Origin: Pseudomonadota bacterium
GTDB taxonomy: Bacteria > Bdellovibrionota > UBA1018 > CAIMNF01
Assembly: GCA_027488515.1 (NCBI GenBank)
Contig: JAIYBN010000004.1
Span: forward strand, 177,252 to 241,251
Reading direction: 5' to 3'
DNA length: 64,000 nucleotides
The translations under genes and the position numbers were made by a program. Positions 4,634-58,241 of the stretch are shown in pieces (positions within the stretch are counted from its first letter, which is position 1; each line of letters begins with the position of its first letter). The notes beneath the pieces were generated by a model that saw only the letters and a program-made list of their open reading frames with translations, made no database searches and was not told the origin of the DNA.

Positions 4634-4710
<77 letters not shown>

Positions 4711-7430: not shown

Positions 7431-7680
7431 GCTTGACTGACTGCATCAAGTATATGCAAGCATGATGCTTTATTGAAAGCTGTCGGGCCGGCGAGCGGGA
7501 AAACCCTTGCCGGTCCCGGCATTTTGTGGGATTGTGTCAAAGTACCCGGTTTCAGTTCCAGTCCGAGTTCGCGTTCCGCTTCTCCGGTCAAATTGAGTCC
7601 TGGTTCGAGTGCCCCCGGTTCATGGACTCGCAATAGGGCGATCATGGATCAGGGCCAATTTAACAAGGAGTAGCCCAAAC

Positions 7681-8064
7681 ATGGGAAAACGTATTTTCGT
7701 AGGGAATCTTCCCTTTTCTGCAACCGATCAAGTCCTGATGGACACTTTCGCCCAATACGGAACGGTTGAGTCGGCGAAAGTGATCACTGACCGCGCCACC
7801 GGCCGGTCCAAGGGTTTCGGATTTGTGGAAATGGCCACGGACGCAGAAGCACTCGCAGCCATCGAGAAGCTCAATGGCGCCGATTATGAAGGTCGCACGA
7901 TCACCGTGAACGAAGCTCGCGAAATGCAGCCTCGCGAAGGCGGTGGCGGCGGTCGTGGCGGACGTCCGGGCGGTGGCGGCGGTGGCGGCGGTGGATACCG
8001 TGGCGATCGTTCTGGTGGTGGCGGCGGCGGTGGATACCGCGGCGGCGGAGGCGGATACCGCTAA
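7681..8064 (+). CDS. RRM-domain RNA-binding protein with Gly/Arg/Tyr-rich tail
   Basis: RBS AAGGAG. RNP-2 IFVGNL and RNP-1 KGFGFVEM motifs. C-terminal GGGGRGG ... GGYRGGGGGYR low-complexity tail. The ORF-track start at 7609 lies further upstream; 7681 is preferred. Confidence 0.85.
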   Translation: MGKRIFVGNLPFSATDQVLMDTFAQYGTVESAKVITDRATGRSKGFGFVEMATDAEALAAIEKLNGADYEGRTITVNEAREMQPREGGGGGRGGRPGGGGGGGGGYRGDRSGGGGGGGYRGGGGGYR

Positions 8065-9187: not shown

Positions 9188-10567
9188 ATGAATCAAGCCC
9201 AAAATTCCGAACAAAACATCGATGTGCTCCTGGTTTTCACGGAGATGGCCGTTCTGGATTCGGTTCACAAAGAGGTCGAGGACCATTTCAAGCGGCCGAT
9301 CGCGGCAGCAAGATTCCAGAACTTGTTGGATGCTGTCGATCATCTCGAAAAAACCGGCAAGAAATACGGATTGATCGTGTTTGAACACCGGTCCAGTTCG
9401 TTGACCATTCTGCGGGCGTTTCTCGAATTGGGTGGGAATGGCGCGTACGTTTTGTGTGGTCTGGATCCGAAAATCGTCCAGGGGCTGGAAGGATCCGACA
9501 CCACGATTGAATTCATCCAGGCCGATGCGGTTTTGAGTGAGCTTCCGAAAACGATCAACCGCCTGGAAGTGACCGGTCGGATGCCGATGATGCATCGGGA
9601 GGAGTCCGAGTACATCCTGGTCCGCCCGGATTACCTGCCCTCGATGGGCCCGCTCGAAGCCACGGTGTACGCGCAGTTGATCGACGGGCATTATGTTCCG
9701 GTATTCAACCAGGGAGACCTGGTCGAAAAACAGGAGGTGGAGAAATTCCTCGAGTCGAAGAAGCTCACTCACTTCTATTTCAGACGCGAAGATTGCGCCG
9801 GCATTCTCGGAAGCCGCCAAAAAGATCTGGATCGTGCCCTTTCCAAGGAACCGATCGACGAGAAAGCGACCACCAAAGCGATCGAGCGCGGGCACAGCAT
9901 GGTCCGGGACGTCGTCGCGACGATGGGATTCACCCCGGAGGCCCAGAAAGTCGCCGTGAGCAGCGTGAGCGCCACCATCAAGTTGATGGGTGCCAAGCCC
10001 AAATTGAGCACCATCCTGGTGGATCTGAAGAACAAAGACGGGAACTACCTCACCGCCCACAGTCTGATGCTCGGGAAAGTCTGTTGTGCTTTGGCTTTCA
10101 AGATCGGCTGGACCTCCAATACGACCTATTTCAAGCTCACCCTCGCGGCATTCTTGCACGACCTCCCCTTGAGCAACGACAAGCTGGCCACGGTGTTCTC
10201 ACTCGACAAGGCGTCCGAGTCGGGGAACTTCTCGACCGATGAGCTGAAGGAAATCCGGATGCATTCGAACAAGGCCGCCGACCATGCCCGGAGCATGAGC
10301 GAGGTGCCCTCGGATGTGGAGCAGATCGTGGCCCAGCATCACGAGCGCCCGGACGGGACGGGCTTTCCGCGTGGATTGAACTCGAAATTCATCACGCCGC
10401 TCTCGGCCCTGTTCATCATCGCCCAGGACATCATCGAATACAGCCAGACGTTCAAGAACAAAGAGGTCGATCTGGCTTCCTACTACGACGCCCGTGAGGC
10501 TTATTTCAACTCAGGTGTGTTCAAAAAGATCATCCACGCCCTGAAACACGACCTGAAAATCCTTTAG
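9188..10567 (+). CDS. HD-GYP-type phosphodiesterase variant (HHExxDGxGFP) with N-terminal pseudo-receiver region
   Basis: HD motif LAAFLHDLPL and AQHHERPDGTGFPRGL, which is the HD-GYP signature with Y to F. The N-terminal 180 aa is REC-like but lacks the acidic pocket and phospho-Asp. Start chosen at ATG 9188. Confidence 0.7.
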   Translation: MNQAQNSEQNIDVLLVFTEMAVLDSVHKEVEDHFKRPIAAARFQNLLDAVDHLEKTGKKYGLIVFEHRSSSLTILRAFLELGGNGAYVLCGLDPKIVQGLEGSDTTIEFIQADAVLSELPKTINRLEVTGRMPMMHREESEYILVRPDYLPSMGPLEATVYAQLIDGHYVPVFNQGDLVEKQEVEKFLESKKLTHFYFRREDCAGILGSRQKDLDRALSKEPIDEKATTKAIERGHSMVRDVVATMGFTPEAQKVAVSSVSATIKLMGAKPKLSTILVDLKNKDGNYLTAHSLMLGKVCCALAFKIGWTSNTTYFKLTLAAFLHDLPLSNDKLATVFSLDKASESGNFSTDELKEIRMHSNKAADHARSMSEVPSDVEQIVAQHHERPDGTGFPRGLNSKFITPLSALFIIAQDIIEYSQTFKNKEVDLASYYDAREAYFNSGVFKKIIHALKHDLKIL

Positions 10568-46937: not shown

Positions 46938-50297
<3,360 letters not shown>

Positions 50298-50301
<4 letters not shown>

Positions 50302-51545
50302 GCCGCGCGGTCATCAGTCGTTTATTCCGTTCTCTTTACTTCTGGGTGATCTTCGCCATTGTGGGTGGGGCTTTGCTCGGAATCCTTTCGCCATCGACCG
50401 GTGCCGCTGTCCATCCTTTGGCTGACGGATTCGTCAGGATCATCAAGTTGTTGGTGGGGCCGGTGATCTTTTGTTCGGTGGCCCTCGGAATCGCAGGAGC
50501 AGAGAGTAAAAAAGAGGCCGGCAGGATCGCTTTCAAGGCTTTCATTTATTTTGAATTGGTTTCGACCTTCGCTCTCGCCATCGGTCTTGCCGTTGCGAAC
50601 CTGCTGAAGCCCGGCGCCGGGTTCCCGCTGGACCCGACTCGCTTGGATGCGAGCCTGGTGTCCGCCTACACCTCTCCCCGGGGCCATCTCCTGAATCCGC
50701 TTCAGGGTGTGAACCTGATCCAGGTCTTGGTGCTTTCGATTGTCTCGGGAGTGGCTCTCCTCTTCGCTCCCGGAAGTTTCAAGGCCCGCGCTGTTTCAAA
50801 ATTGAAAAAGTGGAACCATACTCTTTTCGGCTGGATGGGGAAAGTGATGCTCCTGGCTCCCATCGGTGCCGGAGCCGCCATGGCTTACACCACGGGTAAG
50901 TTCGGTGCCGACTCCCTCCGTCCACTCCTGTTCCTCATGTTTTGTTTTTATCTGACCTGTGCCTTGTTCATTCTCGGTGTGCTCGGCGCGATCGCCCGGG
51001 TTTGCGGATTTTCGATTCTATCTTATCTCCGTTATCTCAAAGCCGAGATCCTCCTGGTGCTCGGGACTTCTTCTTCCGAGAGCGCTCTGGCACCTCTCAT
51101 GGAAAAGCTCGAGAGACTCGGCTGTCCCAGAACCGTCGTGGGCTTGGTGGTTCCGACCGGGTATTCCTTCAATCTCGACGGGACCAACATTTACCTGACT
51201 TTGGCTGCGGTGTTCATCGCGCAGGCTTTCGGCATCGAGCTTTCGCTCGGACAACAGCTGGGGATCCTGTTGGTGGCGATGGTGTCATCGAAGGGAGCTT
51301 CCGGCGTCACAGGGGCTGGGTTCATTACCCTGGCTGCGACCCTGGCCATTGTTCCCGAAATTCCGGTCGCCGGCCTCACTTTGATTCTCGGGGTGGACCG
51401 CTTCATGTCCGAGGCCCGGGCACTCACGAACATGCTCGGAAACGGGATTGCGACTCTGGTCATCGCCCGTTGGGAAGGCAGGCTCGACTCCGCCCGAATG
51501 AATGAAGAATTGGGTCATCCGCACCGGGCCATGCTCGATGCCTGA
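50298..51545 (+). CDS. dicarboxylate/amino acid:cation symporter (DAACS; GltP/DctA-like)
   Basis: ATGA overlap upstream. 8+ TM helices with reentrant loops. Characteristic GTSSSESALAPLM and VDRFMSEARALTNMLGN regions. Confidence 0.85.
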
Positions 51546-51993
51546 AGGCCTGTGGGTTTTGGGCCTCGCCGGGATACTCGGGTTCGCCTCTTGGCGAGCC
51601 GGAGAAGTTTCGGTGTTCATGCGGTCCTGGATTCCCTCGTGGAGGTTCTTTGAGAACACGGGGAACCTTCCGGTGTTCGAGTTCTCCTGTGACGGGGATT
51701 CCGTGGCTGACCGCTGGAGTCCTGTGCCGAATCCGACCGGGTCCGGTAAGGCCCGCTTGCTTTACAGTCCCGGCTCGAATTCTTTCCATGCTTTTGAAAC
51801 GCTGGTCCTCGATTTTGCATTGAACCCTTCCCATGAAGATCTGGTGTCCTGCCTGGTCGATGAAGGGGTGAGGAGGGTCCTGGCGTTTCATCCTGATACG
51901 AAGACGATCCGGTTCAAGGTGAGCTGGACGGATCACGAGGGGACCTTTTCGGATCCGGTTTGGGAGGGCGTGTGGAATTCACCCAACTCCTGA
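51538..51993 (+). CDS. hypothetical protein (possibly the 5' part of a frameshifted gene)
   Basis: ATG inside the gltP stop region. 151 aa. Overlaps the next ORF by 34 nt in a different frame. Confidence 0.35.
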   Translation: MPEGLWVLGLAGILGFASWRAGEVSVFMRSWIPSWRFFENTGNLPVFEFSCDGDSVADRWSPVPNPTGSGKARLLYSPGSNSFHAFETLVLDFALNPSHEDLVSCLVDEGVRRVLAFHPDTKTIRFKVSWTDHEGTFSDPVWEGVWNSPNS

Positions 51994-52745
51994 TCAGGAT
52001 CCAGGAAATGCTTCTTGCGGTCTCTTTGACGGTCCAGAGTGTGGAGTTCCTGTTTGCAGGGGACGGGATGGGGTTCATCCCCCGTTTTTCGAGGTTCCCG
52101 ACTTGGATCCGTTCGCCACTCAGGGTTCTTTGTACTCCGGGCGTTTTCAGGCTCATGCACGGGGTGAGGGCGGTAGCGGCCCTCGGCTTGATGATTCTGC
52201 CTGGAAATCTGGCACTGATGGGAGTGTTGATGGCGCTCCAGATCCTGTTGCCGTTCAGGCATCGCGGCGCATACAACGGCGGGAGCGATTTCATGACCGC
52301 ACAAGTTCTCGGGGGGACGTTCTTGATGACCGTGTTCTCCGCACATCCTGGCCTGGTCCGTGCGATCTTCTGCTATCTCGGCTTTCAGACGGTCTTTTCG
52401 TACTTTGTGTCCGGCCTGGCCAAAATACGGCATCCCGGTTGGAGGAGTGGTGAGGCTCTTCAGGGATTCTTGAGAGTCAATCGTTACGGAACTCCGGATT
52501 GGATTCTCGGATTGCTCCGGCTCCCCGGCTCGGCGAAAGCCATGGCCCGAGCGGTCCTCTTCTTCGAGGTTCTGTTTCCTCTGTCGTTGGCGGGTCCGTG
52601 GCCTGCGTGGATCTTCATGTCGTCAGGAATGGGGTTCCATTATCTCGTGTTCCGGATTTACGGGCTCAATCGTTTTTTCTGGGCTTGGATCTCGGCCTAT
52701 CCCGCTCTTTACTTTCTTTCGATGCAACGGTGGATTGCGCCATGA
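51960..52745 (+). CDS. hypothetical polytopic membrane protein
   Basis: 261 aa with about 6 hydrophobic helices. No secure family assignment. Confidence 0.45.
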   Translation: MGGRVEFTQLLIRIQEMLLAVSLTVQSVEFLFAGDGMGFIPRFSRFPTWIRSPLRVLCTPGVFRLMHGVRAVAALGLMILPGNLALMGVLMALQILLPFRHRGAYNGGSDFMTAQVLGGTFLMTVFSAHPGLVRAIFCYLGFQTVFSYFVSGLAKIRHPGWRSGEALQGFLRVNRYGTPDWILGLLRLPGSAKAMARAVLFFEVLFPLSLAGPWPAWIFMSSGMGFHYLVFRIYGLNRFFWAWISAYPALYFLSMQRWIAP

Positions 52746-52770: not shown

Positions 52771-54120
52771 ATGGTGAAAAAGAGTCCTTACAGGGTTTCG
52801 GCCCGGTTCAAGGAAATCCTCGAAGTTCTGGTCCGGGCCCGGAAAGAAGGGTTGAACCATCTCTGGAAATCCAACCGGCGCAAACTGGTACCGCTGACCA
52901 TCACCCAGATCAATCCGAACGACAATCTCATCCGGGTGGCGATCGATCCCCGTTCCGACCTGAAAGTCCAGTCCGGGGATACCGTTTACCTGAAGCTCGA
53001 GATCCGTGATTCCGCATTCAAAACCGAGGTGGTGGGGGTCGACGGCGATCAGCTGATGCTCCACTTTCCGGATGAAATCGCGCTGACGGAAAACCGGGCC
53101 GAGAAACGCGTTTACTTCCATCCGACCGACCAAAAACAGGTCCTCGCCCGGAAGATCAAGAATGTGAGTTCACCGGTGGCGGCAAGGTCCATTTCCGCCA
53201 CTCTCGCCGACATCAGCCAGACCGGGATGGCCCTCATTCTCAGTCCTCAACAATCGAACGTGATCCAGCTTCGAGACCGGGTCAGTCTCGAGATGCTCGG
53301 ACCATACCGGATTCATCCTCCGATTCATGGAGAGATCGTGTTCAAGATCGAGCATCAGTCAAGAGGGGCCCTCGGCGGCCTCGAGGTCGGTTCCAAGGTC
53401 GGAGTCCACCTGGAGCGCAGGATCCCCAAGGCGACCTATGACGCATTTTGCGTCCGGGACAGTGCATTCGATGTTTCCGATCCCCAATTGGTCCGGGATC
53501 AGGCTTTCCGAAGTGACGTCAGTGAAAAAATGGATTCCTTGGTCAAGCGGATGCGCAAGCGGAAGGGTGGAGCGACCCTGATCCAGCGATTCGAGAAGGG
53601 TAGCAAGAACTCCCCTTATTTGAAGAAACACGTGGAGCTGCTCTGTGAGGTGATGTGCGGACTCGGGACCCGTTTGGGTTGGGTGTCGAGTGCCACTCTC
53701 GACAAGTTGATCTATATCGCTTACCTGCATGATGCCCGTTATTTCGCATTGCCGGCCTTGGCCCGGATCCGTGACCTGCGGGAATTTCAAAAGGTTTTCG
53801 GGACGCTGAGTGCGGAAGAACAGCGCGCGTACCTTGAGGGTCCGGCTTATGCCGCTGAATTGGCAAGGCAGGACAGCGAGTCTCATCCGGATGCTGCGAA
53901 GATCCTCCTTCAGCAAAAAGAACTCCCGGATGGTTCCGGATTTCCGGGCAGGTTGACCGGATCCCAACTGTTGCCTCTGAGTTGCCTGTTTCTGGTGAGC
54001 CACGCGTTTGTGGATTACGTGTACGATCATCCGGATTGGAGTGTTCAGGATTTCGTGAAGACACACCGGAAGATCTACAAGGGGACTTATTTCCAGAAGA
54101 TCTTCCAAGCCATGATCTAG
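52771..54120 (+). CDS. YcgR-like PilZ-domain protein fused to a degenerate HD-GYP-like domain
   Basis: PilZ c-di-GMP motifs RAEKR (RxxxR) and DISQTG (DxSxxG). The C-terminal HD domain (YLHDARY) has ELPDGSGFP in place of HHExxDGxGYP, with no HHE. ATG 52771 preferred over the upstream TTG. Confidence 0.7.
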   Translation: MVKKSPYRVSARFKEILEVLVRARKEGLNHLWKSNRRKLVPLTITQINPNDNLIRVAIDPRSDLKVQSGDTVYLKLEIRDSAFKTEVVGVDGDQLMLHFPDEIALTENRAEKRVYFHPTDQKQVLARKIKNVSSPVAARSISATLADISQTGMALILSPQQSNVIQLRDRVSLEMLGPYRIHPPIHGEIVFKIEHQSRGALGGLEVGSKVGVHLERRIPKATYDAFCVRDSAFDVSDPQLVRDQAFRSDVSEKMDSLVKRMRKRKGGATLIQRFEKGSKNSPYLKKHVELLCEVMCGLGTRLGWVSSATLDKLIYIAYLHDARYFALPALARIRDLREFQKVFGTLSAEEQRAYLEGPAYAAELARQDSESHPDAAKILLQQKELPDGSGFPGRLTGSQLLPLSCLFLVSHAFVDYVYDHPDWSVQDFVKTHRKIYKGTYFQKIFQAMI

Positions 54121-54142
54121 GAGAGTTGACCGGGGTCGGAGA

Positions 54143-54219
54143 TGGTGGCTCGGGGCAGACTTGAACTGCCGACCCCCGCGTTATGAATGCGGTGCTCTAA
54201 CCAGCTGAGCTACCGAGCC
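54143..54219 (-). tRNA. tRNA-Met (elongator, anticodon CAT; tRNA-Ile2/lysidine not excluded)
   Basis: The reverse complement GGCTCGGTAGCTCAGCTGGTTAGAGC ... TTCATAA ... GGTTCAAGTC ... CCGAGCC-A-CCA gives 77 nt with normal 1:72 pairing. Confidence 0.85.
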
Positions 54220-54278
54220 TCTCAAGAATGGGAATAGGGTAGTTTTTAACTGGAAACGCCCCCCACGGCAAGTCCCTT

Positions 54279-55250
54279 TTAGGGACGTTCTGCAAACCGG
54301 TCGGTCGCCGCCACCAGTGCCCGGGCGTTTCCGGGCTCCCGGGAGGCGTGCCCGGCGTCCGGGGTCAGGTGGAGTCTGGCCTCCGGCCAGGCCCGGTACA
54401 GGTCCCAAGCGCTCTTGGGAGGGCAGACCACGTCATAGCGACCTTGAACAATGACCGCAGGGATGTGGCGGATCCGGTCCACACGTTTCAAGATCCAGTC
54501 ATCTTCGGGGAAGAATCCACCGTGAATGAAATAATGGCATTCGATCCTCGCGAATTTGATCGCGAACTCGTCCGTCACAGCCGATTCGATCACTTCTTTC
54601 GGCGTGTGGAGTCTGGAGGTGGACATTTCCCAGGTGGTCCAGGGGCGGGCGGCTGCCACCCTGACCGTCGGATCCGGATCGGTCAGTCGACGATAGTAGG
54701 CCTTCACGAACTCCCCGCGTTCCGACTCGGGAATATGGTCCCGATAGGGCTCCCAGGCGTCCGGGAACATGAAGGAGGCCCCTTCCTGGTAATACCAGTC
54801 GATCTCCTGCTTCCGGATCATGAAAATTCCGCGGAGGACGAGCTCGGTGACCCGGTCGGGATGCTCGATGGCGTAGGTGAGGGCGAGAGTGCTGCCCCAC
54901 GAACCTCCGAACACCATCCAGCGCTCGAGCCCGAGGTGCTCCCTCAATTTTTCGATGTCCCGGACCAGGTCCCAGGTCGTGTTTTCATCCAGATTTGCGG
55001 CAGGGGTGCTTTTCCCCGCACCTCGCTGATCGAACAGGATGATTCTGTACCGGTCGGAATTGAAGAACCGCCTGTCCTGGGGGCCGCAACCGCCCCCCGG
55101 GCCCCCGTGGATGAAGACCACGGGCTTTCCGCGTGGATTCCCACACTCTTCGAAGTACAAAGTGTGAACCGGTGAAACGGCAAGAGTGCCGGTCCGGTAG
55201 GGTTCGATCTCCGGATAAAGCCAGGTCTGTGGGTCGGGAATCATTTCCAT
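54279..55250 (-). CDS. pip: proline iminopeptidase (S33 alpha/beta hydrolase)
   Basis: GGPGGG region, nucleophile GGSWGSTLAL, and length and spacing typical of Pip. Confidence 0.85.
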   Translation of the reverse strand: MEMIPDPQTWLYPEIEPYRTGTLAVSPVHTLYFEECGNPRGKPVVFIHGGPGGGCGPQDRRFFNSDRYRIILFDQRGAGKSTPAANLDENTTWDLVRDIEKLREHLGLERWMVFGGSWGSTLALTYAIEHPDRVTELVLRGIFMIRKQEIDWYYQEGASFMFPDAWEPYRDHIPESERGEFVKAYYRRLTDPDPTVRVAAARPWTTWEMSTSRLHTPKEVIESAVTDEFAIKFARIECHYFIHGGFFPEDDWILKRVDRIRHIPAVIVQGRYDVVCPPKSAWDLYRAWPEARLHLTPDAGHASREPGNARALVAATDRFAERP

Positions 55251-55933
55251 GCCTCCAGGTAATAAGCGCGCAGGGCCTCGATCAGAAACTGTTTGATCTC
55301 GGTGCGGATGTTCTCATTGAGGCCGGCGAAACGGGTGCCCGAACCTTTGTCGGTCCGATGGGTCAGGGTGGCTGTGAATTCAGTGGTGCTGATCACCCAT
55401 CCGTTCACCAGCAACTCGCAGCCAGTGAGTTCGTGGAGTTTGCGACTCTGATCCGGCGTCATGAGGATCCTGGCACCTCCGACACTCAGATCTTCGATGG
55501 CGAAGGTTCCCTCGTTCGTCCTGAGTTTCCCGACGCCACGGGCGAGAGGAACCCGAAGAGCTCCGCGCTTCTGCTGCTTGTAGAGTTCCTTTGGAAACCG
55601 GTAGTGGTAACTCCCGTCGGGAAGTCGCCGGACCGCCTCCGCACGGAATACCAGTTGTGTCGTGAAGAGACTGACTTTGAAATAACTCCGTAGGCCCGCA
55701 CCCGATCCGGTCCTCTGATGAAAACTGTCTGATAGGGAATCCCACTTCACAGTGAACGCTTGACGCTGGGGATTCCATTCGGTGATCCGCCCGGTGAGGA
55801 CTTCGTGCGAACCCTCGAGGCTCACCTCGGTCTTGGGTTTGATTTTGACGAGTTCCTGAATCAGACGGGTGCGTTCTTGGGGGTCCTCGACTTGGGTGAA
55901 GCTCGGCGCTTCGTGGACTCTTCTCGTGCTCAT
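55241..55933 (-). CDS. YcgR-like PilZ-domain c-di-GMP receptor
   Basis: RGALR (RxxxR) and DLSVGGARI (DxSxGG) motifs in the C-terminal half. PilZN-like N-terminal half. 230 aa. Confidence 0.75.
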   Translation of the reverse strand: MSTRRVHEAPSFTQVEDPQERTRLIQELVKIKPKTEVSLEGSHEVLTGRITEWNPQRQAFTVKWDSLSDSFHQRTGSGAGLRSYFKVSLFTTQLVFRAEAVRRLPDGSYHYRFPKELYKQQKRGALRVPLARGVGKLRTNEGTFAIEDLSVGGARILMTPDQSRKLHELTGCELLVNGWVISTTEFTATLTHRTDKGSGTRFAGLNENIRTEIKQFLIEALRAYYLEAWK

Positions 55934-56919
55934 GCATCCTCCGAATGATGTGCTGTTTCATGGGCCAACAAGGCGGCTCCGATCATTCCCGCTGAATCGC
56001 CGATCCTGTGTTTCAGGATGGAGGGCGGATTCTCGGTCAAAAAACAGGTTTCCTTGAGACGCTCCTCCAGGCCTGCATAGAGGCGATCCTGGGTACTGAG
56101 CCCGCCTCCGAGAACAATGACGTGTGGGTCGAGGATATTCGACACATTGGACAGGAAGGTGGTGAGGTCCTCGCGGTAGGACTCCACAGTGGCCAAGGCG
56201 AATGGATTCGCTTCATCGAGTCTCCGGAATATCTCCCTTGCCGACAAGCGTTCCTTGCCGGAAGTCCGCGCGAAATAAGATTGCTCGAGTCCTCCTCCGG
56301 AAAGGTACTGTTCGGCACATCCGAGTTTCCGGCAGTAGCAAGGACGGCCCGACGGGAACAGAGTGGAGTGCCCGATCTCACCGGCCCCGCCCCGTTTGCC
56401 ACGGATGAGTCGCCCGTTCATGATGATGCCCCCTCCGACACCTGTCCCGAGGGTCACGCCCAGCATGCAGAGGTCTTCCTGACGGATGCCGTTCCGCCCG
56501 GCCCATTCGGCACCGGCTCCGAGCCTCGCCTCGGCCAGGGCAAAACAGTTGGCGTCATTTTCGAGTGTCGACGGTCCCAGGTCCGGAAGCGCGGTTTCAA
56601 AAACCTCTTTCAAGGTGAGACCCGAGAGAAAAGGGATGCTGGATTGGGAAAGGACACCGGTTCGGGGGTGAAGCGCACCCGGAACACCGATTCCGGTACC
56701 ACGGACATTTGCCCGCCCGAGCCCCTTTTCTTCGAGCAAACGGTCGATTTGGTGGGAAAGGCGCTTCAAAAACGAATCCAGGCCCGAATTGGGCTCTGTC
56801 GGAAAGCGCTGGGAACCGAGGACTTCATGGGTGTCCGGCTGCGCACCTGCCGACAAACGAACCAGACAGAGCTCCGTTTTGGTCCCGCCGATGTCCAGTC
56901 CGAGGAGTGTGTCCCGCAT
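55930..56919 (-). CDS. ROK-family sugar kinase (glucokinase / N-acetylglucosamine kinase-like)
   Basis: N-terminal LGLDIGGTK ATP-binding motif. ROK Cys-rich zinc motif region (CYCRKLGCAEQY). 329 aa. Confidence 0.8.
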   Translation of the reverse strand: MRDTLLGLDIGGTKTELCLVRLSAGAQPDTHEVLGSQRFPTEPNSGLDSFLKRLSHQIDRLLEEKGLGRANVRGTGIGVPGALHPRTGVLSQSSIPFLSGLTLKEVFETALPDLGPSTLENDANCFALAEARLGAGAEWAGRNGIRQEDLCMLGVTLGTGVGGGIIMNGRLIRGKRGGAGEIGHSTLFPSGRPCYCRKLGCAEQYLSGGGLEQSYFARTSGKERLSAREIFRRLDEANPFALATVESYREDLTTFLSNVSNILDPHVIVLGGGLSTQDRLYAGLEERLKETCFLTENPPSILKHRIGDSAGMIGAALLAHETAHHSEDA

Positions 56920-57020: not shown

Positions 57021-58241
57021 ATGAAGCGTTTTGCATTTCATCTCGGATTTCTTTCGACCTGTTTCATCCTGTCTGGAGCCTTTCCGGCATTCGCCCAAGG
57101 CAACTCCCGGACCCTGGTCCGCATTCAAGGATCTGAGATTCCCGGGTCCGAGCCGGGATTCGAGATGGATGACGCCGACCGGGGATCCTTCGAAGCGGGA
57201 TCCCGTGAGGGCTTGAAGGCGGCCCTGACCCGTCAGCTCGAACGCTGCCAGGACGACAAGGCCGTTTGGAACTTTGCGGGGAAAAAGATCACCCAGAAAC
57301 GGTGGTGTACGGATACTGCGAACTGGTTTCTCTCCAAGCTGAAGACCGTGAACAGTCTCGATGAATTGCTCGCACTCGCCAGGACCGAGCTCGAGTGGTA
57401 CCGGTCCACGGGCAAGCCCGACTCCGGGGACGTGCAGTTCACCGGGTACTTCAATCCGATCCATCGCGCGAAGGCCAAGCGAGAAGGTGTTTATCAGTAC
57501 CCCATCTACCGTCTTCCGCCCGATATCCGGAGTCCTTACTTCACCCGGGAGCAGATCGAGAAGGGGGCGTTGGCCGGTAAGGGGCTCGAGCTCGCTTGGC
57601 TCGACAATCCGGTCGATCCCTTCATCATGCAGGTTCAGGGTTCCGGAACGATCTTGATGGATCAAGGGGACGGTAAAGAAGTCCGCCTCAACATCAATTA
57701 TGCCGGTGAGAACGGACATCCTTACGTGTCGCTTGGAAAAGTGATGCGCGCCGCGGGCGTGCCCGAGGAGTACATCAGTCTCCAGGGGATCCGGAAATAC
57801 TTCCTCGAGGTTCACCCGGAAGAATGGTCGAAATTCTCGAATCAGAACCCGAGCTATGTCTTCTTCAAACAGGATGCGGACGGTCCCTACGGCTATTCGG
57901 GAGCGATCCTCACCCCCAAGCATTCCATTGCGGTCGATAAAACCGTGTTTCCGATGGGAGCCGTCGGAATGATCACTACGGAAAGGCCCTCGGTGATCTC
58001 CGGCGACCAGGCGGTGGCTTGGAAGCGGTTTTCACAGTTCATCGTGGCCCAGGACACCGGAGGCGCAATCAAAACTCCAGGAAGGGTCGACGTGTACTGG
58101 GGAGAAGGTGCTTATGCCGAAGTGGCTGCAGGCCGGACCGATCGCCTCGGAAACCTCTACTTCATGCTGGTGCCTTCGAACAAAAGGAAACTCAGCTCCG
58201 GATCCCGTGGCGCTCGAGTTCGCCGTTCAGGCCGCCACTGA
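57021..58241 (+). CDS. mltA: membrane-bound lytic murein transglycosylase A (MltA family, 3D domain)
   Basis: Signal peptide MKRFAFHLGFLSTCFILSGAFPAFAQG. MltA/3D-domain regions (FTGYFNPI, SIAVDKTVFPMG, AQDTGGAIK). The Arg-rich C-terminal tail overlaps the convergent gene. Confidence 0.8.
   Translation: MKRFAFHLGFLSTCFILSGAFPAFAQGNSRTLVRIQGSEIPGSEPGFEMDDADRGSFEAGSREGLKAALTRQLERCQDDKAVWNFAGKKITQKRWCTDTANWFLSKLKTVNSLDELLALARTELEWYRSTGKPDSGDVQFTGYFNPIHRAKAKREGVYQYPIYRLPPDIRSPYFTREQIEKGALAGKGLELAWLDNPVDPFIMQVQGSGTILMDQGDGKEVRLNINYAGENGHPYVSLGKVMRAAGVPEEYISLQGIRKYFLEVHPEEWSKFSNQNPSYVFFKQDADGPYGYSGAILTPKHSIAVDKTVFPMGAVGMITTERPSVISGDQAVAWKRFSQFIVAQDTGGAIKTPGRVDVYWGEGAYAEVAAGRTDRLGNLYFMLVPSNKRKLSSGSRGARVRRSGRH

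Follow-up and report, generated by a model that had tools for sequence, protein, structure and literature searches.

ORF A, a gene in a 64,000-nt window (the whole stretch of DNA analysed) of contig JAIYBN010000004.1, combines an N-terminal YcgR-type PilZN-PilZ module with a C-terminal HD-GYP-like domain, and probably encodes a soluble, non-hydrolysing c-di-GMP receptor or adaptor, a role as phosphodiesterase being disfavoured by its sequence. The protein has three domains with conserved PilZ motifs and has lost four metal ligands of the HD-GYP active site, and across its family this ligand loss co-occurs strictly with the PilZ fusion. Features of ORF A, of the neighbouring genes and of an HD-GYP paralog elsewhere in the window are listed in Table 1.

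Table 1. Coordinates of genes, domains and motifs discussed in the text (window positions)
Feature	Position	Strand	Description
ORF A	52771-54120	+	449 aa; PilZN-PilZ-(degenerate HD-GYP)
PilZN (YcgR-N-like) beta-barrel of ORF A	52771-53088	+	Residues 1-106
PilZ domain of ORF A	53089-53418	+	Residues 107-216; RAEKR 53095-53109, DISQTG 53209-53226
Helical linker/stalk of ORF A	53419-53610	+	Residues 217-280
HD-GYP-like domain of ORF A	53611-54117	+	Residues 281-449
H287 of ORF A	53629-53631	+	First metal site
H320-D321 of ORF A	53728-53733	+	HD motif
QQKELPDGSGFP in ORF A	53911-53946	+	Q382-K383-E384 instead of HHE, then DGSGFP
tRNA-Met(CAT)	54143-54219	-	ARAGORN; Rfam tRNA, 64.9 bits
pip, prolyl aminopeptidase	54279-55250	-	TIGR01249, 448.5 bits (cut-off 259.75); last operon gene
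ORF B	55241-55933	-	230 aa; stand-alone YcgR-like PilZN+PilZ
DLSVGG of ORF B	55475-55492	-	
RGALR of ORF B	55553-55567	-	
ROK-family sugar kinase	55930-56919	-	Pfam ROK, 187.6 bits; first operon gene
Paralogous HD-GYP gene	9188-10567	+	Possible start TTG 9101; intact HD and HHE but GFP
LHD/HD motif of the 9188 paralog	10157-10162 (HD)	+	
QHHERPDGTGFP in the 9188 paralog	10337-10369 (HHERPDGTGFP part)	+	

Domain organization of ORF A

All 34 aligned homologs begin where the ATG of ORF A lies, and none of them supports the alternative TTG start at 52735 (+12 aa). The PilZ domain has the expected beta-barrel fold and is immediately preceded by a PilZN barrel, as in YcgR-like proteins, while the C-terminal half has the helical fold of the HD superfamily with a GYP-loop insertion. 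In the AF2 model (pLDDT 86.6) the stalk between them comprises helices at residues 238-241, 244-263, and 265-280, and four of its residues (D243, F246, R247, V250) are conserved in the family alignment. A domain search of the two halves bore out the PilZ assignment, a marginal pass for Pfam PilZ (PF07238; 25.0 bits, cut-off 22.5), whereas HD_5 scored 25.3 bits and thus stayed under its gathering score of 27.2. Of 35 family members, 29 matched PilZ, and 26 matched HD_5 at E < 0.01.

Searches of PDB sequences recovered no chain at E ≤ 1 with the ORF A family profile and only marginal matches, PA4781 and DvhD, with the single sequence; homology to HD-GYP proteins was established via the fold search and a paralogous gene at 9188. 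The presence of a GFP-type HD-GYP gene at this position, proposed from the sequence-only reading, was confirmed together with its LHD motif and QHHERPDGTGFP. This HHE-bearing paralog, which matches the C-terminal half of ORF A with an E-value of 3e-21 and Bd1817 (3tm8) with 2e-8, is the closest catalytic-type relative of that half. A tblastn search of the window with both ORFs as queries found no paralogs besides the 9188 gene.

The motifs of both halves are strongly conserved. R109 and R113 of RAEKR (residues 109-113) and G152 of DISQTG (residues 147-152) are invariant across 35 homologs that are 35-92% identical, as are H287, H320, D321, E384, G390, and P392, and D147 is conserved in at least 90% of these sequences. 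This invariance indicates that the motifs are not chance matches.

Loss of metal ligands in the HD-GYP-like domain

Metal ligands were mapped by reference to Bd1817 (H150, H183, D184, N265, H212, H237, E238) and the columns of the family alignment. H287, H320, and D321 of the first metal site (H...HD) are each present in all 59 family members, while the three second-site histidines and the fourth first-site ligand are lost. The equivalent of H212 is G357 in ORF A (A, G, or S in 57 of 59 members), that of H237 is Q382 (Q in 54/59), and the second histidine of HHE is K383 (K or R in 57/59), leaving E384 alone of this motif. The fourth first-site ligand (PmGH D305, Bd1817 N265) is A412 in ORF A and varies among family members (Y, D, A, or E). 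D415, a second-shell residue (PmGH D308, Bd1817 D268), is kept in 55 of 59 members. In the DGSGFP loop, the D, both G, and P are conserved and the Y is replaced by F in 48/59 members, a replacement also found in 65 of 67 HHE-bearing members of the same clade.

In PmGH, alanine replacement of any of the second-metal-site histidines (H250, H276, H277) abolishes activity and D305A reduces it markedly. Because the corresponding ligands are lost, hydrolysis of c-di-GMP by ORF A is predicted to be absent. The initial description of a canonical PilZ domain fused to a probably non-catalytic HD-GYP-type domain without HHE thus held, with the PilZ motifs kept and the second-site histidines replaced. The same description also raised gating of a phosphodiesterase by the product it makes, which is unlikely: such an enzyme would take c-di-GMP as its substrate, and four ligands are gone whose mutants in PmGH are inactive or reduced in activity.

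The conserved HD site and D415 set the family apart from ECA3548 (HT) and DvhD (SQ), and one metal site may therefore persist. Given this retained HD site, ORF A may support some hydrolytic chemistry. A modified form of the gated-enzyme idea, which we regard as doubtful, has H287, H320, and D321 hold one metal and cleave some phosphoester, with PilZ-bound c-di-GMP as an allosteric switch of the activity and pGpG, a mononucleotide or another cyclic dinucleotide as candidate substrate. Beyond the conservation of these residues and of D415, it can draw on the strong purifying selection on the domain, on mononuclear-site HD-superfamily proteins reported as phosphomonoesterases, and on the invariant H411 and nearly invariant E356, which adjoin lost ligand positions and could substitute for them. 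It has to contend, however, with the four replacements themselves, which at the second site include a conserved Q and a cationic K/R, residues that do not coordinate metal. In addition, both characterised HHE-less relatives, ECA3548 and DvhD, are inactive, and even Bd1817, which retains more ligands, is without phosphodiesterase activity.

Conservation and distribution of the ORF A family

The PilZN-PilZ-HD-GYP-like family comprises at least 70 sequence clusters. Among about 140 relatives compared, none of the 67 sequences with an intact histidine triad had a PilZN-PilZ N-terminus, which was present in 67 of the 70 histidine-free sequences; the remaining three were fragments. The result is a clean natural experiment, one HD-GYP clade in which every member fused to PilZN-PilZ carries a conserved Q-K in place of the second-metal histidines. 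The HD-GYP-like domain has a mean pairwise identity of 0.60, with 51 of its 169 columns at least 90% conserved, as compared to 0.36 each for PilZN and PilZ. Degenerate in its ligands, it is the best-conserved part of ORF A and is under strong purifying selection, which makes the label of an HD-GYP remnant, given to it at first, misleading. Since the HD site is kept and the degenerate domain is more conserved than the sensor, the family is a good candidate for establishing the role of a "dead" HD-GYP domain. For annotation, proteins of the ORF A type should not be counted as phosphodiesterases.

The family is of Bdellovibrionales type, a group with many predatory bacteria. A single genome can hold as many as three paralogs, in unrelated contexts (SDF transporter-hypothetical-HTTM-like; miaB-like-hexapeptide transferase-dnaE; YkuD/TP_methylase/tgt). 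The conserved neighbours of the three paralog groups are housekeeping genes and indicated no partner or target.

ORF B and the ROK kinase-PilZ-pip operon

ORF B has the two-barrel fold with RxxxR and DxSxxG motifs. Its score against Pfam PilZ (17.3 bits) was under the gathering threshold of 22.5, and 6 of 25 homolog clusters had a precomputed PF07238 match. R123, R127, S150, and G153 are invariant in the 25 homologs, and Foldseek with the AF2 model (pLDDT 85.7) retrieved MrkH (E 7e-10), PP4397 (3e-9), YcgR (1e-8), and VCA0042 (1e-6). The initial assignment of ORF B, which carries RGALR and DLSVGG, as YcgR-like is thus supported by the fold search despite the sub-threshold Pfam score. The ROK kinase gene, for which the best NCBIfam match was N-acetylglucosamine kinase (166 bits, below cut-off), overlaps ORF B by 4 nt (ATGA), and pip overlaps the stop of ORF B. 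This ROK-PilZ-pip triplet is conserved at three further loci (L032-L034), recurring at 46-50% identity. The neighbourhood of ORF B contains no flagellar genes that would link it to a flagellar brake. ORF B is most likely an independent YcgR-like receptor inside the ROK kinase-PilZ-pip operon, which is the conserved unit at this locus.

ORF A, tRNA-Met, pip, and ORF B were all recovered with every sequence feature named for them, and had been interpreted as a c-di-GMP effector cluster. We consider a functional unit in which both PilZ proteins act together highly improbable and the cluster largely refuted by synteny. The arrangement does recur in L001 and L003 (91% and 78% ORF A identity), and the N-terminal half of ORF A is weakly similar to ORF B (25% identity, E 7e-4). 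However, ORF A and ORF B are transcribed towards each other with the tRNA and pip between them and are adjacent only in these nearest genomes, and the genes to which ORF B is coupled in translation are ROK and pip. Homologs of ORF B with 41-50% identity keep the ROK-PilZ-pip order with an ORF A homolog absent nearby, and homologs of ORF A occupy at least 20 other loci without nearby ORF B, pip, or tRNA-Met. In L033, an SDF-114aa-HTTM series follows downstream of pip as it does in the window, and the place of ORF A is taken by other genes. The tRNA-Met gene, whose position is shared by L001 and L003 only, is a neighbour and forms no functional unit with ORF A. An Rfam scan returned the tRNA only and no c-di-GMP riboswitch, and predictions of promoters and terminators did not exceed what shuffled sequence gives. 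The position of ORF A beside a second PilZ gene thus appears to be a lineage-specific accident.

Putative function of ORF A

We propose that the YcgR-type PilZN-PilZ module of ORF A binds c-di-GMP at RxxxR/DxSxxG. That this module is structural only, does not bind c-di-GMP, and leaves signalling to other means is most improbable, for the marginal Pfam score and the most divergent relatives (P0047, P0049, P0050), which have N at D147 and a changed S149, would suit such a reading, but across the 35 sequences RxxxR never varies and [D/N]xSxxG hardly does, N at the first position fits the accepted [D/N]hSxxG consensus, and the best fold matches of the N-terminal half were c-di-GMP-bound YcgR, PP4397, and MrkH.

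In the favoured reading of ORF A as a receptor or adaptor, binding would make PilZN-PilZ clamp, by analogy with YcgR, PP4397, and MrkH, and the clamping would be relayed via the helical stalk to the HD-GYP-like domain. This domain is predicted to be unable to build the binuclear or trinuclear metal centre required for c-di-GMP hydrolysis. It could serve as an output surface via its exposed DGSGFP loop, comparable to the RpfG-GGDEF contacts, and maybe also offer a further nucleotide site that needs no metal, like that of DvhD. For ORF A, c-di-GMP binding, the lack of hydrolysis, and the kind of output are predictions.

A more speculative version, to which we give a low probability, is a two-site receptor in which c-di-GMP or pGpG binds both to the PilZ domain and in a metal-free HD-GYP pocket, where K383 stands in for the lost second metal. 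If true, this would allow coincidence or two-threshold detection by a single protein chain, the three paralogs of a genome would be lineage-specific switches in Bdellovibrionales-type bacteria, and PilZ fusion and loss of the histidine triad would mark a single conversion from enzyme to receptor.

Comparison with known systems

The architecture of ORF A, initially regarded as unusual, is not new. ECA3548 of Pectobacterium atrosepticum (GenBank CAG76446) was already described as a PilZN-PilZ-inactivated HD-GYP protein that hydrolyses neither c-di-GMP nor pGpG, affects motility and the c-di-GMP level, and is thought to work by binding or protein-protein interaction (Galperin and Chou 2021, preprint; McKee et al. 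2014). Compared by description, ECA3548 and ORF A have the same three-domain order (PilZN, a canonical PilZ, HHE-less HD-GYP) and have both lost HHE; with at least 70 sequence clusters in the present family, the claim of rarity was overstated. The two differ in that ECA3548 has HT instead of HD and ANE for HHE, whereas HD is present in every member of the ORF A family together with a conserved QKE, and in that the HD-GYP half of ORF A belongs to a GFP-type clade together with the 9188 gene. A 2025 survey of YcgR homologues in ACS Omega leaves an HD-GYP fusion unmentioned.

DvhD of Desulfovibrio vulgaris (PDB 9rbz/9rc0) is a PAS-HD-GYP c-di-GMP receptor, in which the inactive HD-GYP domain binds c-di-GMP metal-free and the stalk helices move (Font et al. 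2026). DvhD is membrane-embedded, has PAS and periplasmic domains, and lacks the PilZ that ORF A carries in its PilZN-PilZ module. Its HD is SQ and the phosphate-contacting tyrosine of GYP is kept, whereas ORF A has F391 there. In DvhD a guanine is held by Y652, M646, and L577, for which W423, Y416, and L346 are the candidate counterparts in ORF A; this mapping of DvhD nucleotide contacts depends on a weak phmmer alignment with an E-value of about 1. Bd1817 of Bdellovibrio bacteriovorus (PDB 3tm8) is a DUF3391-HD-G-P protein (Lovering et al. 2011) with a complete binuclear site and another N-terminal domain; in ORF A the second site is missing altogether and the N-terminus is PilZN-PilZ.

The PilZN+PilZ fold with an RxxxR linker and DxSxxG, as in YcgR, PP4397 (FlgZ), MrkH, MotI, and VCA0042, is common to residues 1-216 of ORF A and to the entire ORF B. 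No flagellar or fimbrial genes near ORF A point to the targets of YcgR-type receptors. These receptors and ORF B stop after PilZ, while ORF A adds a 230-residue helical stalk and HD-GYP-like domain. Receptor function has repeatedly been taken on by degenerate domains of c-di-GMP enzymes, as in LapD, FimX, DvhD, and ECA3548.

Gene layout of the region

The region holds two convergent gene sets (see table of features). On the forward strand, the SDF-family transporter gene, the 163-aa ORF, and the HTTM-like gene overlap successively by 44 and 34 nt, and ORF A, encoding a 449-aa protein, starts 25 nt past the stop of the HTTM-like gene. On the reverse strand, the ROK kinase gene overlaps ORF B, which encodes a 230-aa PilZ protein, by 4 nt, and ORF B overlaps pip by 10 nt. 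Assignment of pip as prolyl aminopeptidase is secure (TIGR01249, 448 bits, cut-off 260). The tRNA was the sole match in the Rfam search, which yielded no riboswitch; it is one of two tRNA genes with CAT anticodon in the window.

Features of the window and of comparison loci
Feature	Sequence	Position	Strand
CAT-anticodon tRNA	window	4634-4710	-
Small RRM-type RNA-binding protein, long glycine/arginine/tyrosine-rich tail (GGGGRGGRPGGGGGGGGGYRGDRSGGGG...)	window	7609-8064	+
HD-GYP gene, GFP for GYP ("9188 gene")	window	9101/9188-10567	+
SDF-family transporter	window	50283-51545	+
163-aa ORF	window	51502-51993	+
261-aa membrane protein, HTTM-like	window	51960-52745	+
ORF A	window	52771-54120	+
tRNA-Met(CAT)	window	54143-54219	-
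pip, prolyl aminopeptidase	window	54279-55250	-
ORF B	window	55241-55933	-
ROK kinase	window	55930-56919	-
ROK-PilZ-pip triplet	window	54279-56919	-
mltA	window	57021-58241	+
ROK-PilZ-pip locus	L032	4027-6664	
ROK-PilZ-pip locus	L033	2721-6664	
ROK-PilZ-pip locus	L034	2282-6667	
SDF-114aa-HTTM genes	L033	9016-10696	
dnaE-context paralog locus (example)	L008	122-11112	

Domain architecture of ORF A

Taken alone, the Pfam scores of ORF A for PilZ (25.0 bits, cut-off 22.5) and HD_5 (25.3 bits, cut-off 27.2) were marginal, and its relatives were therefore gathered. The 52 full-length relatives (~450 aa, 35–92% identity) all derive from uncultured Bdellovibrionales-type bacteria, and alignment of the homologs showed the ATG at 52771 to be their common start. 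Among 35 aligned family members, PilZ was matched by 29 and HD_5 by 26. Invariant residues are R109 and R113 (RxxxR) and G152 (DxSxxG, with D147 conserved in at least 90%) in the PilZ domain, and H287, H320-D321 (HD), Q381, E384, P386, G390, and P392 in the C-terminal half, the last five within the near-invariant stretch QQKELPDGSGFP. The motifs reported for ORF A in the sequence-only reading are thus real and conserved. An AlphaFold2 model built from the family alignment (mean pLDDT 86.6) comprises beta-barrels at residues 7–106 and 123–214, a helical stalk at 238–302, and a helical domain up to residue 449. Foldseek agrees with this (MrkH 4e-9, Bd1817 3e-6), and the last 170 residues share 30% identity (E 3e-21) with the product of the 9188 gene. 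ORF A therefore has a PilZN-PilZ-stalk-HD-GYP-like architecture, and the proposed assignment of its halves to PilZ and HD-GYP is backed by both profile and fold searches.

The 9188 gene, previously noted as a GFP-type HD-GYP, is indeed one: it carries LHD and QHHERPDGTGFP, with HD and HHE intact, and Bd1817 (PDB 3tm8, Lovering et al. 2011) is its closest solved structure (sequence match E 2e-8). It stands for a large clade, as QHHE...GFP occurs in 58 of 201 retrieved family proteins and phenylalanine occupies the GYP tyrosine position in 65 of 67 long relatives without PilZ. Such HHE-bearing proteins may still be active, because the Y285A exchange in PmGH did not substantially reduce activity.

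Loss of metal ligands coincides with PilZ fusion

In Bd1817, metal 1 is bound by H150, H183, D184, and N265 and metal 2 by D184, H212, H237, and E238, while D268 orients H150. The metal-site residues of PmGH are E185, H189, H221, D222, H250, H276, H277, and D305, and alanine at H250, H276, or H277 abolishes activity. The corresponding columns were read from an alignment of 146 C-terminal domains, among them those of Bd1817 and the 9188 paralog. ORF A has lost all dedicated second-metal ligands and retains the first metal site minus one ligand; Q382-K383 confirms the previously noted absence of HHE. This ligand analysis argues against the label "c-di-GMP phosphodiesterase class II" that several database sources give to the family.

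Metal-site positions in 59 PilZ-fused proteins and 67 relatives without PilZ
Position	ORF A	PilZ-fused	Without PilZ
Bd1817 H150	H287	H 59/59	H 50/67
HD motif	H320, D321	H and D each 59/59	H 63/67, D 67/67
Bd1817 H212	G357	A/G/S 57/59	H 59/67
Bd1817 H237 (HHE first H)	Q382	Q 54/59	H 60/67
HHE second H	K383	K/R 57/59	H 59/67
PmGH D305 / Bd1817 N265	A412	variable, Y/D/A/E	D 49/67
PmGH D308 / Bd1817 D268	D415	D 55/59	D 27/67

An HMM of the PilZN-PilZ half served to classify N-termini, which were then compared in a cross-table with the triad at 357/382/383. None of 67 proteins with an HHH triad had a PilZN-PilZ N-terminus, which was present in 67 of 70 histidine-free proteins (the other three are fragments of 240–250 aa); six proteins had a mixed triad. 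Within this HD-GYP clade, c-di-GMP sensor fusion is paired with loss of the catalytic histidines. The degenerate domain shows no decay, since its mean pairwise column identity in the ORF A family is 0.60 (PilZN and PilZ 0.36, linker 0.34) and 51 of its 169 columns are conserved in at least 90%.

Genomic context of ORF A and ORF B

With one genome scanned per species, 25 loci encoding an ORF A relative were recovered, 24 of them in Bdellovibrionales, Oligoflexia, or Bacteriovoracaceae MAGs. The exception, L004 (CALPVV020000073.1), encodes a member 48% identical to ORF A in a MAG labelled Nitrosovibrio sp., probably a binning or labelling error and not a true betaproteobacterial occurrence. Some genomes contain up to three paralogs (D4_MAG_00031, "ZAP7", RE-26jul17-3). 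Only L001 (91% identity) and L003 (78%) share the window arrangement with tRNA-Met, pip, ORF B, and ROK; L002 ends at a contig edge, so the arrangement there is cut off. A second paralog group (L005–L011, L014, L029; eight genome-scan loci plus L029) always lies 3' of miaB-like radical-SAM, hexapeptide transferase, and dnaE genes on the same strand. Two conserved convergent proteins of ~455 and ~775 aa without Pfam match are encoded 3' of these paralogs. Members of a third group are flanked by a YkuD-domain gene and TP_methylase/tgt, and the context of homolog P0035 differs again. In a neighbour-joining tree, the window's group is sister to L004 and L005 and nested in the dnaE-context clade, which suggests a lineage-specific duplicate. 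ORF A also looks like a lineage-specific addition to the SDF/small ORF/HTTM-like operon, because in L033 the same three genes lie 3' of pip, as in the window, with other genes in the place of ORF A.

ORF B is, as previously proposed, YcgR-like in fold, and it has canonical binding motifs: R123, R127, S150, and G153 are invariant among 25 homologs, and its model (pLDDT 85.7) matched MrkH (7e-10), PP4397 (3e-9), YcgR (1e-8), and VCA0042 (1e-6) in Foldseek. Its own Pfam PilZ score is sub-threshold (17.3 bits). No flagellar link of ORF B was found. The genes for ROK sugar kinase, ORF B, and proline iminopeptidase are translationally coupled as a triplet, kept with overlaps in three distant contigs (L032, L033, L034; ORF B homologs 46–50% identical). 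In two of these, as in the window, a divergent mltA lies upstream. All three contigs lack a nearby ORF A relative. The postulated functional cluster of ORF A, tRNA-Met, pip, and ORF B is thus contradicted both by these contigs and by the other contexts of ORF A relatives. The best match of the ROK kinase is N-acetylglucosamine kinase, below cut-off. Together with the MltA lytic transglycosylase, the triplet hints at an apparently undescribed link of c-di-GMP to GlcNAc or peptidoglycan recycling.

Putative function and comparison with known systems

The best-supported reading of ORF A is that of a receptor. The PilZN-PilZ unit would bind c-di-GMP, as suggested by intact motifs and c-di-GMP-bound structural matches, and the signal would run via the stalk to the HD-GYP-like domain. 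This domain, presumably unable to hydrolyse c-di-GMP, could serve as an interaction surface, by analogy to RpfG, which binds GGDEF proteins through its GYP loop, or as a second, metal-free nucleotide pocket. The main alternative is a gated enzyme working with a single metal at the remaining H/HD site. In its favour, H287, H320, and D321 are perfectly conserved, which sets the family apart from ECA3548 and DvhD, but we consider this alternative unlikely; the receptor reading is supported by these same two proteins as experimental precedents.

The domains of Pectobacterium ECA3548 (Galperin and Chou 2021 preprint; McKee et al. 2014) are described in the order PilZN-PilZ-HD-GYP, as in ORF A, and its HD and HHE motifs read HT and ANE. 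The protein shows no hydrolysis of either c-di-GMP or pGpG, but it affects motility as well as the level of c-di-GMP. In Desulfovibrio DvhD (Font et al. 2026), HD is changed to SQ and HH to MN, and metal-free binding of c-di-GMP moves the stalk helices. A weak phmmer alignment pairs L346 and Y416 of ORF A with the guanine-clamp residues L577 and M646 of DvhD, respectively, and W423 approximately with Y652, which is only a hint of correspondence. The architecture, previously regarded as unusual, and the concept of an inactive HD-GYP as receptor are therefore already published. Specific here is a phylum-restricted family of ~70 sequence clusters that, in contrast to both proteins, retains the HD site, with HH replaced by a conserved Q-K, a phenylalanine for the GYP tyrosine in common with HHE-bearing members of the same clade, and an all-or-none tie of PilZ fusion to histidine loss.
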